From an uncultured bacterium (GTDB taxonomy: Bacteria; Acidobacteriota; Thermoanaerobaculia; Multivoradales; J023), in assembly GCA_965371445.1 (NCBI GenBank), contig CBDUYN010000036.1, positions 100 through 64,099 on the forward strand: 64,000 bases of DNA, given 5' to 3'. A program made the translations under genes and the position numbers. How positions within the stretch are numbered: position 1 is the first letter of the stretch; every line of letters starts with the position of its first letter. Positions 1 through 58,600 of this stretch are shown here, piece by piece. The notes beneath the pieces are model-generated. The model saw only the letters and a program-made list of their open reading frames with translations, was not told the DNA's origin and did not search any database.

Positions 1-1330
1 CCCGCGCCGACAGCTCGCCGAAGGTCGGGTCGCCTCGGAGGTCGCCGCGCAGCACCTGGGTGTTGACGAAGAATCCGACGAGCCCTTCGATCTCGGCCCG
101 GTTGCGGTTGGCGATCGGCGAGCCGACGGCGAAGTCGTCCTGGCCGGTGTAGCGCCCGGCGAGCGTCTGGAAGGCCGCCAGGAGCGTCATGAAGAGCGTG
201 CTTCCGTGCCGCCGGCTGAGCTCCTGCAGCTTGAGGAAGAGCTCCGCCGGCAGCCGGAAATGCTCTGTGGCACCTCGGAAGCTCTGCACCGCCGGCCGCG
301 GCCGGTCGGTGGGCAGCTCGAGCACGGGGAGCCCGGCGAGCTGCTCTCGCCAGTAGGGCAGTTGGCTCTCCAGAACCTCGCCGGCCAGCCATTGGCGCTG
401 CCACACGGCGAAGTCGGCGTACTGCACGGGCAACTCGGGAAGGGGCGGCGCCGTGCCGGGAGCGGCCGTACCCGTGGAGAAGGCCCGGTAGAGGGCCGCC
501 AGCTCACGCAGGAACACGCCCAGGGACCAACCGTCGAAGGCGATGTGGTGCACCGTGAGGAGCAGGACGTGCTCCTCCACGCCCAGCCGCAGCAGCCGGA
601 CCCGCAGCACAGGGCCGCGGGCCAGGTCGAAGGGCTGGTGCGCTTCAGCCCAGGCCAGACGCTGAGCCGCGGCGCGGCGCGGCGCCGCCGGCAGCGCCTG
701 CAGGTCGAAAACCGGCAACAGCAGGACGAGAGCCGAGGAGATCGCCTGGAACGCTTCCCCGTCCACCGTTTCGTAGGCGGTGCGCAGCACCTCGTGGCGG
801 CGCACGATCTCGCCCAGGGCGCGGGCCAGGGCGGCCGCCTCGAGGGGGCCCTCGAGGCGCAAGGCCGTGGGGATGTTGTAGAGCACCGAGTCCGGCTCGA
901 AGCGGTCGAGGAACCACAGACGCTGCTGAGCGAAGGAGAGCGGCAGGCGGCCGCGCCGCGCCGCCGGCCGCACGGGGGACGTCTCGAGGGGCCCGACGCG
1001 GCGCAGGGCCGCGGCGACGTACTCCGCCAGGGCCGCCACCGTCGAGCGCTCGAAGAAGATGCGCAGCGGGGCCTCGACCCCCAGCTCCCGGTGTATCCGC
1101 GACACCACCTGGGTCGCCAGCAGGGAGTGGCCGCCGAGCTCGAAGAAATCGTCGTGGACGCCCACGCGCTCGACGCCGAGCACCCGCGCCCAGATGCTGG
1201 CCAGCAGCTCCTCCAACGGGTCGCCCGGCGCCTGGCCGTGGGCCGTTGCCGGCGCCGCCGCCGGCAACGGTCGACGGCTGAGCGCCACCCGGTCCACCTT
1301 GCCGTTGGGATTGAGCGGTAGGGTCTCGAG
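1..1330 (-). repeat. Copy B of a roughly 3.23-kb intragenic module repeat (C and T part)
   Basis: Collinear with 3232-4560 at a constant offset of 3231 nt. Examples: catgaagagcgtgcttccgtgccgccgg at 188 versus the same string with one mismatch at 3419; ccgtcgaaggcgatgtggtgcaccgtgaggagcagga at 531 versus 3762. A hand-aligned 60-nt sample (121-180 versus 3352-3411) has 51/60 identities. Confidence 0.8.
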
Positions 1331-4300
1331 GAACACGAAGGCCGACGGCACCATGTACCCGGGCAGCTTCGGACGCAGGAAATCCCGCAGCTCGGTCTCC
1401 GCCGCTCCTACCCCCTCGGCCACCACGTAGGCCACCAGGCGCTGGTCTCCCGACACCTCCTGATGAACGACCACCGCCACCTTGCGCACCGCCGGGTGCT
1501 CGCCCAGGACCGCCTCCACCTCCCCCAGCTCGATGCGGAAGCCCCGCACCTTCACCTGGTGGTCGCGCCGGCCCTGGAAGTCGATCCGGCCGTCCGCCAG
1601 GGTGCGCACCACGTCGCCCGTCCGGTAGAGGCGGGCACCGGGACCGGCGCCGCGGGGATCCGGTATGAAGCTCTCCGCCGTCAGTCCCGGACGTTTCAGA
1701 TACCCGCGCGCCAGGCCGTCGCCGCCGATGCAGAGCTCGCCGGGGATCCCCACCCCCTGTTGCCGGAGATGCCGGTCCAGCACCGAGACCCGGGTGCTCG
1801 AGATGGGGCGTCCGATCGAAACCGGATCCTCCACCGCGCCGGGCTCCCCCATCGGGTGGCAGCAGGTGAAGGTGGTGTTCTCGGTCGGTCCGTAGCCGTT
1901 GATCACCGTGCGTCCCGGAAGCTCCTCCAGGACGCGCTTCACGTGCCGCGCCGAGATCACGTCACCCCCGGCCAGCAACTGCCGCACCCCTCGCAGACCC
2001 TCGAGGTTCTCGTCGACCATCTGGTGGAAGAGGCCCGCCGTCAGCCACAGGATCGTCACCTCTTGGCGCTCGAGGACCGCGCCCAGCTCCTGCAACGACG
2101 GCGTGTACGGCGGAAAGACCACCAGCCGGCCTCCGCCCAGAAACGCCGCCCAGATCTCCAGCGTCGAGGCGTCGAAGGAGATCGGCGCCAGTTGCAGGAA
2201 GGTCTCCTGCTCGCCCAGCTCGGCGTAGCCCGCCCCCCGGACCAGCCGCACCACCCCGCGGTGGATGATGCTGACCCCTTTCGGCCGGCCCGTGGAGCCC
2301 GAAGTGAACATCACGTAGGCCAGGTTCTCCGCCGTAGCCCCGGCCCTCGGGTTCTCCGGGCTGTGTCGGGAGATCGTCGACCACTCGCTGTCGAGGCAGA
2401 CCCGGCGGATCGGCACCTTCGCGAAGCGTTCCGAAAGCCGCTCCTGGGTGAGCAGCAGCGAGGAGCCGGCATCCTCCAACATGGAGGCCAGGCGCTCCGG
2501 CGGATAGCTCAGGTCCAGGGGCACGTAGGCCCCTCCCGCCTTCAAGATGCCCAGGATCCCCACCACCATCTCCCCCGAGCGCTCGAGACACAGCGCCACG
2601 CACACCTCCGGACCCACACCCTGAGCCCGCAGGTAATGGGCGAGCCGATTCGCCCGCCGGTTGAGCTCCCGGTAGCTCACCTGCTCCTGCAAGAGACCGT
2701 CCCCGCGCTCGGCCGGATTCTCACAGACCACGGCCACCGCCTCCGGAGATGCCGCCACCCGCGCCTCGAAAAGCTCGTGGATCGGCGCCTCCGCGGGGTA
2801 AGTCACCGCCGTGTCGTTCCACTCCGGCAACACCTGATGCCGCTCGGCCGCGCTCAACAGGGACAGCTCCGAGAGCCGCCGCTCCGGAGCCGCCACCAAC
2901 CCCTCCAGGAGGGTGCGGTAATGCCCCGCCAGGCGCCGCAGGGTCACACCGTCGAAGAGATCGGTGTTGTACTCCACGTCGCCCCGCAGCCCCCCTTCCG
3001 CCTCCTCCAGACCCACGGTCAGGTCGAACTTCGCCGTGCCGTTGTAGACGTACTCGAAGCTCGCGGCGAGCCCCGGTGCGAGCTCCGGCGGCGCCATGGC
3101 CACGTTCTGCAGCAGAAAGACCACCTGCACCAGCGGGTTGTGGCTGAGGTTGCGCTCCGGTTCCAGCTCCTCCACTAATCTCTCGAAAGGCAGATCCTGG
3201 TGGACGTAGGCCGCCACGGCGGTGGCGCGGACGCGCGCCGAAAGCTCGGCGAACGTCGGATCGCCCCCGAGGTCGCCGCGCAGCACCAGGGTGTTGACGA
3301 AGAATCCGATGAGCCCCTCGATCTCGGCCCGATTGCGGTTGGCGATCGGCGAGCCGACGGCGACGTCTCTCTGGCCGGTGTAAAGTGCGGCGAGCGTCTG
3401 GAAGGCTGCCAGGAGGGTCATGAAGAGTGTGCTTCCGTGCCGCCGGCCGAGCTCCTCCAGGCCCCTCGAGAGCTCCGGCGGCAGCCGGAAGTGCTCGGCG
3501 GCGCCGCGGAAGCTCTGCACCGCCGGTCGCGGCCGGTCGGTGGGCAGTTCGAGCACGGGCAGACCCGCGAGCTGCTGGCGCCAGTAGGCCAGCTGCCTCT
3601 CCAGGACCTCCCCCTCGAGCCACCGCCGTTGCCAGACGGCGAAGTCGGCGTACTGCACGCCGAGCTCGGGCAGGGGCGACGCCGTGCCGCGAGCGGCCGC
3701 GCCGGCGGAGAAGGCCCGGTAGAGCGCCGCCAGCTCGCGCAGAAACACGCCGAGGGACCAGCCGTCGAAGGCGATGTGGTGCACCGTGAGGAGCAGGAGA
3801 TGGCGCGTCGTGGACTGCCGCAACAGGCGGGTCCGCAGCACCGGGCCCCGGGCCAGGTCGAAGGGCCGGCGGGCCTCTTCGAGCACCAAGCGGCGAGCCT
3901 CGGTCCGCCGCCGCGACGGCGGCAGGCCAGCCAGGTCCGAGAGCGGCAGCGGCAGGTCCGGGCCGGGCCGGATCACCTGCACCGGCATCTCGTCCAGCGC
4001 TGCGAAGCACGTGCGCAGCACCTCATGGCGGCTCGCGATTTCGTTCAGCGCCCGGGCCAGGGTGGCGCATTCGAGGCGGCCAGTGAGACGCAGGGTAATG
4101 GGGATGTTGTACAGGGCCGAGCCGGGCTCGAACCGATCCAGGAACCACAGCCGCTGCTGGGCGAAGGACAGGGGCAGCGGGAGCTCGCGCGACACCGGCT
4201 CCGGCGGTGTCGCCGCCGAAGGCGTGGCGCCGCTGAGCTCGGCGAGGGCCGTGGCCAGATCGGCGAAGGTCGCCTTCTCCAGCACGGTGGGGAGCGCCAG

Positions 4301-57721: not shown

Positions 57722-57733
57722 GGAATCGAACCT

Positions 57734-58600
57734 CTAGAGCGTGGTGGCGTAGTCGTAGAATCCGCGGCCGCTCTTGCGGCCCAGCTCGCCAGCGAAAACC
57801 ATCTTCTCGAGCAGCGGGCAGGGACGGAACTTAGGGTCCCGGTAGCTCTCCCAGAGCACCACGAGCGAGTCGAGGATGGTGTCGAGGCCGATCAGGTCTC
57901 CGGTCTCGAGCGGCCCCATCTTGTGGCCAAAGCAGGTCTTGAAGAGACGGTCGACGTCCTCGGCCGGCGCGACCCCGTCCTGGACCACGAAGATCGCCTC
58001 GTTGATGGTGAGCATCAGCACCCGGTTGGTGACGAAGCCCGGCATGTCGTTGACCACGATCCCTTCCTTGCCCATGCCGGCGAGGAAGGCGCGGGCCGTC
58101 TCGAGGGTCTCTTCCGAGGTGTGGTGGCCGCGGATCACCTCGACCGTGGGCTTGAGCGGTACCGGGTTCATGAAATGCATCCCTACGACCCGGTCGGGAC
58201 GCCGAGTGAGGGATCCGAGACGGGTGATGGAGATGCACGAGGTGTTGGCCGCCAACACGCACGGCTCGGGGCACACCTCGTCGAGCCGCGGGTAGACCTC
58301 GGCCTTCACTTCCCATTTTTCGATCACGTTCTCGACCACGAAGTCGGCCTTCGAGAGCGCCTCGTAGTCGGTGGTGGCCTCGATGCGCCCGAGGATCGTG
58401 GCCGCGCTCTCCGCGCCCTCGTTCTTCTTGGCGAAGAGGCTCTGCATGCGCAGGTTCTGCCGGATCTCCGAGCGCGCTCGCTCGAGCTGGGCCTCGCCGA
58501 GGTCGATCAGGACGATCCGGTGTCCGGTCTGGGCCAGGTTCTGAGACACGCCGACTCCCATGACGCCGGCTCCGATGACTCCGATGGTTTCTAGCTGCAT
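57734..58600 (-). CDS. 3-hydroxyacyl-CoA dehydrogenase family protein (FkbK/ZmaG-like)
   Basis: 288 aa. N-terminal Rossmann motif IGVIGAGVMGVGVS. HBD-type motifs GMHFMNPVP, PGFVTNR and GPLETGDLIGLD. It is the first gene of the operon, with GGGGAAGAAGG just before its ATG. Confidence 0.9.
   Translation of the reverse strand: MQLETIGVIGAGVMGVGVSQNLAQTGHRIVLIDLGEAQLERARSEIRQNLRMQSLFAKKNEGAESAATILGRIEATTDYEALSKADFVVENVIEKWEVKAEVYPRLDEVCPEPCVLAANTSCISITRLGSLTRRPDRVVGMHFMNPVPLKPTVEVIRGHHTSEETLETARAFLAGMGKEGIVVNDMPGFVTNRVLMLTINEAIFVVQDGVAPAEDVDRLFKTCFGHKMGPLETGDLIGLDTILDSLVVLWESYRDPKFRPCPLLEKMVFAGELGRKSGRGFYDYATTL

Follow-up and report, generated by a model that had tools for sequence, protein, structure and literature searches.

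Hybrid NRPS-PKS pathways that use hydroxymalonyl-ACP, of the zwittermicin A (zma), amicoumacin and xenocoumacin type, share a four-gene cassette of an FkbH protein, an ACP, a 3-hydroxyacyl dehydrogenase and an acyl-CoA dehydrogenase, without an O-methyltransferase. Such pathways begin with an N-acyl-D-Asn prodrug module and require a ClbP-type peptidase. The operon described here carries the same cassette, but starts with FAAL-ACP-C-A(Gly), has no E domain in its first module and no peptidase in the window (the whole stretch of 64,000 nt that was analysed), and its protein identities to these pathways are low. The FAAL-ACP-C-A-T start is held in common with FAAL-primed lipopeptide synthetases of cyanobacteria, myxobacteria and Acidobacteriota; these relatives go on with NRPS modules, whereas in g5 the next domains are KS-AT-KR-DH-T, and three further PKS modules come after them. 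Docking of the TubB/TubC type, with a TubC_N domain and an upstream partner ending in a short acidic tail, is recognisable at g12, where the docking domain is not N-terminal but preceded by a kinase-like domain of ~350 aa. The 58.6 kb operon is a real but incomplete fatty-acid-primed polyketide/peptide assembly line and, as a system, of an ordinary kind; its oddest part is this fusion of a kinase-like domain to the N-terminal side of a docking domain.

From the ORF listing and the junction sequences, thirteen genes (g1 to g13, Table 1) lie back to back on the minus strand at positions 1–58600, with intergenic distances, from g1 to g13, of 12, 10, 24, 3, -4, 22, 0, -4, -4, 27, 38 and -4 nt. This agrees with an earlier note on this DNA, which had counted thirteen one-strand genes with a largest gap of 38 nt, ATGA overlaps at 44272-44275, 21544-21547 and 6055-6058, and a TAG directly followed by GTG at 29155-29160, the g7/g8 junction; its domain string was reproduced almost exactly by Pfam, NCBIfam and active-site checks. 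Likewise, an MbtH-like motif is absent, and the flanking ORFs that were scanned include no visible regulator, as had been stated for both. For g5, g10 and g11 the likely true starts are ATGs located 2–5 codons inside the longest ORFs, and Shine-Dalgarno-like runs precede the inner ATGs of g10 (GAGGAAGG) and g11 (AGGAG). The promoter-like pattern in the 376-nt gap upstream of g1 was found once, against 0.2 sites expected. The sequence left of position 1, to which the earlier note had looked for the end of the line, does not reach it: the contig (64197 nt in total) stops ~200 nt beyond the window, and therefore no further sequence of the operon exists.

Table 1. Features of the operon and of the g12 protein (positions in the window).
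Feature	Position	Strand	Basis
Promoter-like site	58924..58952	-	TCGACA-17-TATCTT; consensus match only
g1, 3-hydroxyacyl-CoA/ACP dehydrogenase	57734..58600	-	Pfam 3HCDH_N E 2e-57, 3HCDH E 1e-32
g2, free-standing ACP, 81 aa	57476..57721	-	Pfam PP-binding E 6e-9; GFVNSL with attachment Ser
g3, acyl-CoA/ACP dehydrogenase	56290..57465	-	Pfam Acyl-CoA_dh_N, _M, _1
g4, FkbH-family HAD phosphatase/acyltransferase	55231..56265	-	NCBIfam TIGR01686, 270.8 bits (cut-off 146.65)
g5, FAAL(19-577)-ACP-C(HHAVAD)-A(Gly)-T-KS-AT-KR-DH-T	44272..55227	-	Pfam, NCBIfam, active-site motifs
g6, KS-AT(GHSIG, HAFH)-KR(K-S-Y present)-T	39599..44275	-	Pfam, active-site motifs
g7, KS-AT1-KR-T-KS-AT2-cMT-KR0-T	29158..39576	-	Pfam, active-site motifs
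g8, C(HHSVAD)-A(Ser)-T-KS(C-H-H)-AT0(GHGVG, truncated)-KR0-T	21544..29157	-	Pfam, active-site motifs
g9, FMN/4Fe-4S domain of FadH/BaiCD-type ene-reductase	20378..21547	-	Pfam Oxidored_FMN E 5e-70
g10, ADOP-family duplicated MacB/FtsX permease	17913..20381	-	TIGR03434 741.6 bits (cut-off 622.3); Pfam MacB_PCD x2, FtsX x2
g11, C-A-T-E-C-A-T	9939..17885	-	Pfam, A-domain codes, C/E motifs
g12, APH-TubC_N-C-TE	6055-9900	-	Pfam
g12 kinase, APH/homoserine-kinase-II-like, residues 20-312	8965..9843	-	Pfam APH E 1e-18
g12 TubC_N-type beta-hairpin docking domain, residues 356-407	8680..8835	-	Pfam PF18563 E 5e-13
g12 condensation domain (HHIISDG), residues 427-877	7270..8622	-	Pfam Condensation E 2e-100
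g12 adenylation vestige, residues 878-935	7096..7269	-	LLVEWP...VMDASGRPVPIGVWG...VRYLPDGRLE; sequence reading
g12 thioesterase, residues 1007-1265	6106..6882	-	Pfam Thioesterase E 3e-26; Cys1089 (GWCFGG), Asp1115, His1245
g13, A-T-C-A-T-C..., open at left (contig end)	1..6058	-	Pfam, A-domain codes, C motifs

Domains and active-site residues show a start at which the FAAL is predicted to put a fatty acid on the ACP and the C domain to N-acylate Gly, followed by four cis-AT PKS modules (KR and DH, KR, KR, and cMT with a dead KR) and, in g8, by a Ser module and a KS-AT0-KR0-T unit in which catalytic residues are missing from both AT and KR. All five KS domains carry Cys-His-His; further motifs were found in the AT (GHSIG, HAFH) and DH (HxxxGxxxxP) of g5 and in the AT1 (GYSLG with an insertion, HAFH), AT2 (GHSVG, HAFH) and cMT (VLEFGAGDG) of g7, the second KR of which is a fragment. 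The A-domain code of g5, DILQLGMIWK, exactly matches a reported Gly-domain code (PMC12283262). The code of g8, DVWHISLIDK, points to Ser, and literature codes also support the Leu, Val, Ser and Cys assignments in the operon. The Gly and Ser assignments of the earlier note are upheld by these codes, and the active-site residues bear out the inactivity that it had ascribed to the second KR of g7 and to the AT and KR of g8. Over the FAAL-ACP-C-A-T part of g5 (first 1795 residues), many relatives share 43–52% identity with 97–100% of the length covered in all but 2 among the 120 matches listed; they are FAAL-ACP-C-A-T-C-A-T proteins of ~2850 aa from Pyrinomonadaceae, Blastocatellia, Thermoanaerobaculia, Nostoc, Scytonema, Anabaena and Sorangium, and no named, characterised synthetase is among the listed matches.

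With regard to extender-unit supply, g1 matches NCBIfam 3-hydroxybutyryl-CoA dehydrogenase models with scores under their cut-offs; we infer an FkbK/ZmaG-like role for g1 and an FkbI/ZmaE-like role for g3, with g2 as the presumed carrier of the glycerate-derived unit. Since Pfam and NCBIfam detect no O-methyltransferase with g1–g4, their product would be hydroxymalonyl-ACP and not methoxymalonyl-ACP, which could either be taken by AT1 of g7 or be brought in trans to the AT-less g8 module. The solved structure nearest to g7 AT1 is the hydroxymalonyl-ACP-specific AT of ZmaA (4QBU; 219 bits, with the next match at 193). However, hydroxymalonyl use by AT1 hangs on this 26-bit margin, and the malonyl-type AT of g5 scores even higher against ZmaA.

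The description of g9 as an OYE reductase stands with respect to the Oxidored_FMN domain, but of a FadH/BaiCD-type enzyme only the FMN/4Fe-4S half is present: NCBIfam matches span only positions 1-377 of models of ~640 residues, and g9 aligns at 55% identity with residues 79-449 in a 707-aa dock-OYE-Pyr_redox protein of a related locus (L001), keeping the CxxCxxC...C motif. Its relatives also have an NAD(P)H/FAD domain and a docking domain, both of which are missing from g9. We propose that g9 reduces a C=C bond of a carrier-bound intermediate with electrons from an outside donor. The adjacent g10 is a probable exporter, by which the product would leave the cell. In g11, a module for a Cys-like residue with an E domain (code DLYDFSLVWK; E motif HHLAVDGVSW) is followed by a divergent C domain and an A domain with the code DIWEVTADDK, which we take to be Dab-like, and the protein ends in the acidic tail EEVEEFEI. 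The two A codes of g13 are Leu-like (DAWFLGHVVK) and Val-like (DALWLGGTFK), and at the start of the protein 6 residues precede the C-A linker motif LLVEWNDT.

The make-up of g12 as kinase, docking domain, C and Cys-TE was recovered as previously claimed, by Pfam and by the Cys nucleophile in GWCFGG. Its kinase domain aligns with 6EF6 (E 2e-17) and, distantly, with the APH-family amicoumacin kinase (E 3e-4), from which it differs in being NRPS-fused. In the family alignment, IDFTD (242-246) and HADFTFTEN (223-231) were located, the latter with a one-residue insertion seen in none of the relatives aligned. Among 1.84 billion representatives nothing exceeds 42% identity to the kinase domain, and no homologue of g12 exceeds 49%, a value that covers the C domain only. 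A fusion of kinase and docking domain was not found described in a full-text literature search. The docking domain follows the kinase in all relatives. The kinase-like domain would be a lineage-typical accessory of the docking domain and not a residue-specific tailoring enzyme. The C domain is closest in the PDB to those of teixobactin Txo1/Txo2; the segment after it can be aligned only weakly and locally with A6-A8 of the A domains in the window, contains no PP-binding or AMP-binding domain by Pfam, and runs into an Ala/Arg-rich linker without a T domain. For the TE, the best PDB match is that of AB3403 (4ZXH, E 1e-28), a C-A-T-TE protein of A. baumannii with the identical GWCFGG motif and an Asp ~26 residues on; in AB3403 the nucleophile is a Cys and the Asp occupies the usual position I, while SulM has Gln-Cys-Asn and a catalytic Asp relocated to position II (PMC11298585). 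A Cys nucleophile is also shared with the beta-lactone- and beta-lactam-forming TEs of ObiF1 and SulM, but g12 has Trp-Cys-Phe and an Asp at position I, and its TE is of the AB3403 type and not of this one. A and T domains are both present in AB3403, the product of which is uncharacterised, whereas g12 has an A vestige and no T.

A strictly colinear read-out, as given in the earlier note, leaves several features out of account: the only TE lies in g12, upstream of g13, the g12 C domain has no A-T, and g13 starts with A-T at the C-A linker. We consider it somewhat more probable than its opposite that the genes form a single thiotemplate assembly line, truncated where the contig stops. The chain would pass from g5 over g6, g7 and g8 to g11 via matched termini (g7 and g8 have similar tails, and g8 and g11 similar SPA(R/K)(K/R)xL N-termini), and the acidic tail of g11 would dock on the beta-hairpin domain of g12. 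Because g13 begins exactly at the C-A linker and each partner is an orphan, condensation of the chain onto the A-T of g13 most likely falls to the g12 C domain, the two forming a split module, and the line would run on with Leu-like and Val-like residues past the contig. The g12-fused TE might act in trans in product release or in editing of stalled carriers, and the product would be a lipo-Gly-tetraketide-Ser-ketide-peptide. Against this single line stand the perturbed kinase motif, the missing NAD(P)H/FAD domain of g9, the end of the line lying outside the sequence, and the g12 C-terminus and g13 N-terminus, between which no docking element is visible. To our knowledge, no precedent exists for the fusion of a TE to a C domain in the middle of a line. 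Moreover, g12 has a GC3 of 0.78-0.80, compared with 0.85-0.93 in all other operon genes (0.89-0.93 without g10), and may be a later insertion capping the line after g11.

It is possible, though clearly less probable, that g12 is the true line end, its docking domain holding the last T of g11 while the Cys-TE releases or cyclises a chain whose last residue is the Dab-like one; the g12 C domain would then be idle or use a free amine, and g13 would open a separate, co-transcribed NRPS line, yielding two products or one made convergently. The sole TE of the window, the fit between g11 tail and docking domain, the A-T opening of g13, which resembles an initiation module, and the distinct composition expected of a later-added capping gene all agree with this, whereas the start of g13 inside a C-A linker motif is not a typical initiation N-terminus, the intact HHIISDG of the g12 C domain would be without an acceptor, and in relatives the protein that carries kinase-dock-C always continues into A-T. 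A decaying cluster that no longer makes its product, to which the truncated dead AT, two dead KRs, the truncated reductase, the NRPS module without A-T and the perturbed kinase motif could point, appears very unlikely given ~58 kb of uninterrupted ORFs with uniform GC3 of ~0.9, tight translational coupling and intact catalytic motifs in all KS, A, C, T and TE domains. In two related loci (L001, L012), too, the g8-type module has a dead AT (GxGVG) and a dead KR, which are therefore a family feature and not random decay. Mis-assembly of the metagenome through NRPS repeats, in which case both the C-vestige-TE protein and the opening of g13 with A-T would be artefacts, is hardly credible. Such repeats do exist, the contig stopping inside the second of the two C domains of g13, which are 75% identical, and the GC3 of g12 is unlike that of its neighbours; yet the flanking TPR gene has a GC3 of 0.78, so a g12-like value occurs elsewhere on the contig, the boundary before g12 is clean (38-nt gap with a Shine-Dalgarno-like GAGG in GCGAGGAG), the g12/g13 junction is a clean ATGA overlap without flanking DNA repeat, and the g11 tail suits the docking domain of g12.

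The view that the architecture cannot be assigned to a known pathway holds insofar as no characterised close relative was found, the best matches being MAG and metagenome proteins of at most 52% identity, but the operon is not unique: building blocks of g8, g9, g10 and g12 recur in ~27 uncharacterised loci; each of these with a GTDB genome or taxon name belongs to Acidobacteriota, and several belong to Thermoanaerobaculia. Together with the ADOP family of g10, the kinase-dock-C loci of GTDB genomes, all acidobacterial, point to an uncultured soil bacterium, probably of Acidobacteriota, as the source of the operon. Common blocks are the APH-like kinase with TubC-type docking domain and C N-terminus, the C-A-T-KS-AT0-KR0-T unit with a FadH/OYE reductase, and the ADOP permease. 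The kinase-docking fusion recurs in these related uncultured bacteria, and the gene before it ends in T and ..E-x-E-[LIF] in ~20 loci, i.e. wherever this end is readable. An OYE partner accompanies the dead-AT/KR module in L001 and L012 and an OYE is also present in L002, dock-OYE adjoins the kinase-dock genes in L024 and L067, and ADOP genes adjoin related NRPS genes in L005, L013, L022, L027, L029 and L031.

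Thirteen successive genes, g1 to g13, run on the minus strand from 58600 to position 1 of the window, which has a G+C content of about 70%, as seen from the ORF listing, a stop-to-stop scan and the junction sequences. The intergenic distances from g1 to g13 amount to 12, 10, 24, 3, -4, 22, 0, -4, -4, 27, 38 and -4 nt, and the three ATGA overlaps as well as the TAG followed by GTG without spacing, which the earlier note had claimed, are all found in the junction sequences. In the longest ORFs of g5, g10 and g11 the start is TTG, with an ATG 2-5 codons further in; GAGGAAGG precedes the internal ATG of g10 and AGGAG that of g11, and use of the internal starts in these three genes would alter the intergenic distances by no more than a few nucleotides. 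The domain string which had been read from the translations of g1-g13 was reproduced by Pfam and NCBIfam, and a search for the MbtH-like motif in any frame of the window likewise agreed with its claimed absence.

Features of the operon and its right flank (nucleotide positions in the window unless residues are stated)
Feature	Position	Strand	Content or motif	Assignment or source
ATGA overlaps	44272-44275, 21544-21547, 6055-6058		stop/start overlap	junction sequences
TAG-GTG junction	29155-29160		no spacing	junction sequences
Promoter-like match	58952-58924	-	single match in 376-nt gap 5' of g1	
Right flank of operon			FG-GAP/ASPIC gene; DoxX-like gene (+); TPR gene	
DoxX-like membrane protein gene and two further ORFs	60724-61143, 61261-62201	+		
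231-aa ORF	61390-62085	-		
g1-g4		-	3-hydroxyacyl DH; ACP; acyl-CoA DH; FkbH	TIGR01686 above cut-off
g5		-	FAAL-ACP-C-A-T-KS-AT-KR-DH-T, KR ahead of DH	Pfam/NCBIfam
g5 A			DILQLGMIWK	Gly; identical to reported Gly-domain code (PMC12283262)
g5 reductive domains	44905-46398			
g6		-	KS-AT-KR-T	Pfam/NCBIfam
g7		-	KS-AT-KR-T-KS-AT-cMT-KR fragment-T	Pfam/NCBIfam
g7 AT1 (first AT)	37060-37962			
g8		-	C-A-T-KS-AT fragment-psiKR-T	Pfam/NCBIfam
g8 A			DVWHISLIDK	Ser; 8/10 vs DVWHLSLVDK (PMC12283262)
g8 PKS part	21544-25776	-		
g9	20378-21547	-	Oxidored_FMN	Pfam/NCBIfam
g10	17913-20381	-	ADOP permease	TIGR03434, 742 bits
g11		-	C-A-T-E-C-A-T	Pfam/NCBIfam
g11 A1			DLYDFSLVWK; A5 motif variant GGATE	Cys-like, 7/10 to Cys codes
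g11 A2			DIWEVTADDK	Dab-like, presumed; compare DIWELTADDK
g12 (1281 aa)		-	APH-TubC_N-C-TE	Pfam/NCBIfam
g12 N-terminus (APH-like kinase, TubC_N)	8680-9843	-		
g12 APH-like domain	residues 20-312			
g12 TubC_N docking domain	residues 356-407			PF18563, E 5e-13
g12 C domain	residues 427-877		HHIISDG	
g12 A-domain remains			opens with C-A linker motif LLVEW; A6-A8 remnants VMDASGRPVPIGVWG...VRYLPDGRLE	
g12 linker ahead of TE			Ala/Arg-rich	
g12 TE	Cys1089, Asp1115, His1245		GWCFGG at Cys1089	
g13		-	A-T-C-A-T-C, open-ended	Pfam/NCBIfam
g13 A1			DAWFLGHVVK	Leu-like, 9/10
g13 A2			DALWLGGTFK	Val-like, 9/10
g13 C domains	2-952, 2831-4132			

The docking domain of g12 does not lie at the extreme N-terminus of the protein, being preceded by a 350-aa APH-like domain. 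Scans with an alignment of this kinase-docking fusion retrieved related loci (numbered from L001) from GTDB genomes (12 loci, 12/12 in Acidobacteriota and several of them in Thermoanaerobaculia), from ENA/NCBI (3 contigs) and from metagenomes (12 contigs, the kinase being present in 11); the order APH-like kinase, TubC_N and C domain is thereby found at about 27 loci, and those named to a taxon all belong to Acidobacteriota. In L001, L002, L003, L006, L023 and L024, two successive genes each open with the fusion. Among 1.84 billion representative sequences, the kinase domain of g12 has 948 relatives at E<=1e-10, with identities of 42% at most. The majority of these stand alone as proteins of some 335 aa, and NRPS N-termini in which the kinase leads, with or without docking domain, into a C domain make up 19 of the top 150. 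The APH fold and the IDFTD motif are present in g12, and the catalytic loop, HADFTFTEN, is longer by one residue ahead of its Asn, an insertion confined to g12 among the fused relatives read. The fused relatives whose motif was read by scan or alignment, 19 representatives from about 17 loci, keep HxDxxxxN, as do 117 of 124 free-standing ones, and IDFxD is retained in the fused relatives aligned. Wherever its end is visible (about 20 loci), the carrier-bearing gene before the fusion closes with an acidic ..E-x-E-[LIF] tail; g11 ends in EEVEEFEI, and this tail and the TubC_N domain of g12 form a predicted docking pair.

For the role of the kinase we rank an accessory or structural function at the subunit interface highest, followed by phosphorylation of the product or an intermediate for self-protection, for which the amicoumacin kinase, a distant relative, would be the model, and then by ATP-dependent gating of chain transfer. 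A Ser/Thr-directed kinase acting by phosphorylation and elimination was rejected, since the A-domain codes around the junctions are highly variable (in L005, for example, Val-like upstream and Leu-like downstream), so that no single residue goes with the kinase. The free-standing kinases were also considered as resistance genes linked to biosynthetic gene clusters (BGCs), a reading that was dropped with NRPS neighbours at one of 27 loci of at least 6 kb. Full-text literature searches yielded no description of an APH-docking-C fusion, which, given their incomplete coverage, is weak evidence of novelty. We propose, as a speculation that we consider rather unlikely, that the fusion constitutes a so far undescribed class of NRPS inter-subunit domain, in which an active kinase would serve either ATP-dependent gating or regulation of the inter-subunit hand-over or a built-in self-protective phosphorylation of the product, nascent or finished, before ADOP export, and which would act here alongside a module divided into C and A-T and a Cys-thioesterase working in trans. 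If the kinase is active in hand-over or self-protection, it would be a new domain type for assembly-line enzymology and a new handle for mining and for engineering subunit interfaces; if it is inactive, the cluster is one more orphan metagenome BGC, and orphan clusters of such type are common in soil metagenomes.

The reading of g12 as kinase, docking domain, C domain and Cys-thioesterase stands for all four domains and has to be extended by the vestige of an A domain between C and TE; a T domain was not found in g12. Its C domain is not followed by an A-T on the same protein, the first A-T of g13 has no C, and the first residue of g13 lies six before LLVEWNDT, exactly at a C-A linker. Mainly because these orphan parts complement each other, we prefer, with modest confidence, a split module in a colinear line, in which the chain continues on g13. 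Counting against the split module, no docking element is visible between g12 and g13, and GC3 of g12 (0.78-0.80 in all three parts) lies below that of the other twelve operon genes (0.85 in g10, 0.89-0.93 in g1-g9, g11 and g13), a difference which suggests that g12 has a history distinct from its neighbours, by later acquisition or recombination. The TE lies in g12, ahead of g13, and could instead release the chain after the hand-over from g11, a reading that we consider rather less likely. The g12/g13 junction was also examined as the site of a tandem duplication or a direct repeat, which was rejected, there being no DNA-level repeat past the LLVEW codons.

The g12 TE shares its Cys nucleophile (GWC1089FGG) with the ObiF1/SulM-type TEs, but it carries Trp-Cys-Phe in place of their Gln-Cys-Asn and lacks their position-II Asp; Asp1115 sits 26 residues past the Cys and aligns to the position-I Asp region of AB3403. 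Lactam- and lactone-forming TEs are set apart by the Gln-Cys-Asn motif and the relocated Asp (PMC11298585), and since g12 has neither, we do not count it among the ObiF1/SulM enzymes; as a matter of family membership, the idea that it forms a beta-lactam or beta-lactone on the Dab/Dap-like residue was rejected. The top solved-structure match is the AB3403 TE (4ZXH, E 1e-28), which has GWCFGG as well and is named in PMC11298585 as the sole other NRPS TE of known structure whose nucleophile is Cys. In related acidobacterial clusters the TEs carry Ser, not Cys. The best matches of g12 reach at most 49% identity, over the C domain only, and belong, where named, mostly to uncultured Acidobacteriota, Longimicrobiaceae and other Gemmatimonadota; searches with g12, its kinase domain and the start of g5 gave no relatives above 42-52% identity. 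The end of the assembly line falls outside the 64197-nt contig, the single one on record for the window's own protein, and a look-up of the exact g12 sequence gave no match. The two C domains of g13 share 75% protein identity and the contig stops within the second; this repeat probably broke the assembly.

Upstream, the start of g5 reads as FAAL-ACP-C from Pfam matches to AMP-binding, AMP-dom_DIP2-like and PP-binding and a subsequent C domain with HHAVAD, the top NCBIfam matches of the FAAL being fatty-acid--AMP ligase models with scores under their cut-offs. With residues 6-1800 of the 3651 aa as query, this lipoinitiation part aligns end to end, at 45-52% identity, with many unnamed FAAL-ACP-C-A-T-C-A-T proteins among the matches listed. 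Cys-His-His is kept in 5/5 KS domains, the T domains carry the attachment Ser in GxDS, GxNS or GxHS motifs, and the ATs of g5, g6 and module 2 of g7 show GHSxG and HAFH, established motifs of the malonyl type. Lys-Ser-Tyr is kept in the KRs of g5, g6 and g7 module 1 and lost in the second KR of g7 and in that of g8; neither the LDD nor the Trp motif was found in the KRs of the window, and therefore no stereochemical assignment was made. In g5 the KR comes ahead of the DH, the reverse of what is usual for modules of cis-AT PKSs, where DH precedes KR. Specificity codes extracted by GrsA numbering uphold the Gly and Ser that had been assigned to the A domains of g5 and g8. For the second A domain of g11 we presume a Dab-like substrate from the similar code DIWELTADDK, on which literature searches gave nothing usable. 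The E domain of g11 contains HHLAVDGVSW, and no other C domain of the set diverges as much as the one behind it, which fits a C that accepts a D-residue.

The FkbH-type glycerate cassette is complete, comprising FkbH, a PP-binding ACP, 3HCDH and three Acyl-CoA_dh domains. No FkbG-type O-methyltransferase, as required for the methoxymalonyl-ACP variant, was found in the window, where the in-line cMT of g7 is the sole methyltransferase domain, and this points to hydroxymalonyl-ACP as the probable product of the cassette. It may be used through g7 AT1, whose top PDB match is the AT of ZmaA by a margin of 26 bits, with the malonyl-type g5 AT scoring higher still against ZmaA. The same AT1 carries GYSLG, with Tyr replacing the usual His of GHSxG, and an insertion before the active site, and the ATs of L004, L010, L011 and L013 match it above every other AT of the window (306-341 bits).

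The AT of g8 is dead, since it reads GHGVG and misses the small subdomain. In L001 and L012, a C-A-T-KS-AT0-KR0-T protein, in which AT and KR lack catalytic residues, is followed by a TubC_N-FMN reductase (dock-OYE) and then by a kinase-docking-C-A-T protein, and L002 shows the same order from the T domain on. As in the PKS part of g8, the KR is dead in L001 and L012 and the AT nucleophile Ser has changed to Gly (GTGVG, GSGVG), so that the 'dead' domains of g8 are a conserved design. The dock-OYE gene adjoins kinase-docking genes in L024 and L067 too. Compared with residues 79-449 of a protein of L001 with 707 aa (TubC_N, Oxidored_FMN, Pyr_redox), g9 shows 55% identity and retains the 4Fe-4S Cys motif; it has lost two domains which the reductase of the relatives bears itself, namely the one for docking and the one for NAD(P)H/FAD (Pyr_redox). 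ADOP permeases occur beside or within the related NRPS gene sets of L005, L013, L022, L027, L029 and L031, a recurrence which suggests that they are a regular exporter or resistance element of these clusters.

The sequence shows which catalytic domains are present and in what order, the specificities for Gly and Ser, the reductive domains able to work, the FkbH cassette devoid of an O-methyltransferase, the docking domain with its matching tail and the Cys-Asp-His TE, and from these a route to the product can be proposed. A fatty acyl-Gly starter would be extended with malonate, reduced and dehydrated, and two beta-hydroxy extensions would follow, one of which may take hydroxymalonyl-ACP through g7 AT1, although the support for this is weak. 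A C-methylated beta-keto extension would precede amide formation with Ser, and a fifth extension would take place on the g8 module, which, having no working AT, would receive its extender in trans. g9 would act on a carrier-bound enone or enoyl with electrons from an outside donor, a D-configured Cys-like and then a Dab-like residue would be added, and docking would hand the chain to g12, to be continued on g13 or released by the g12 TE. Export would proceed through g10.

The system is a FAAL-primed hybrid PKS-NRPS assembly line, a class that is well known, and its extender cassette and docking fold are already known. The N-acyl-D-Asn prodrug pathways (colibactin, xenocoumacin, amicoumacin, zwittermicin) combine a C-A(Asn)-T-E starter with a ClbP-type periplasmic peptidase, whereas in the window the first A code is that of Gly, g5 has no E domain and no peptidase gene is present. 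After these searches, no earlier account is known to us of a kinase with docking N-terminus, of a conserved unit of KS-AT0-KR0-T and FadH-type reductase, or of a C-vestige-TE(Cys) protein whose partner opens with A-T. The first two, together with the ADOP exporter, are conserved blocks of an uncharacterised cluster family, and for one lipo-polyketide-peptide the window, with its truncated cluster, supplies a template that is almost complete. Acidobacteriota are among the most abundant soil phyla, and few, if any, of their polyketide or nonribosomal peptide products have to our knowledge been characterised; literature searches for characterised acidobacterial lipopeptides gave nothing usable.

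The flanking genes and the 376-nt gap before g1 place the right border of the cluster at about 58.6-59.0 kb. Further to the right, the two plus-strand ORFs next to the DoxX-like gene have no Pfam match, and the Pro/Arg-rich 231-aa ORF opposite them is probably spurious.
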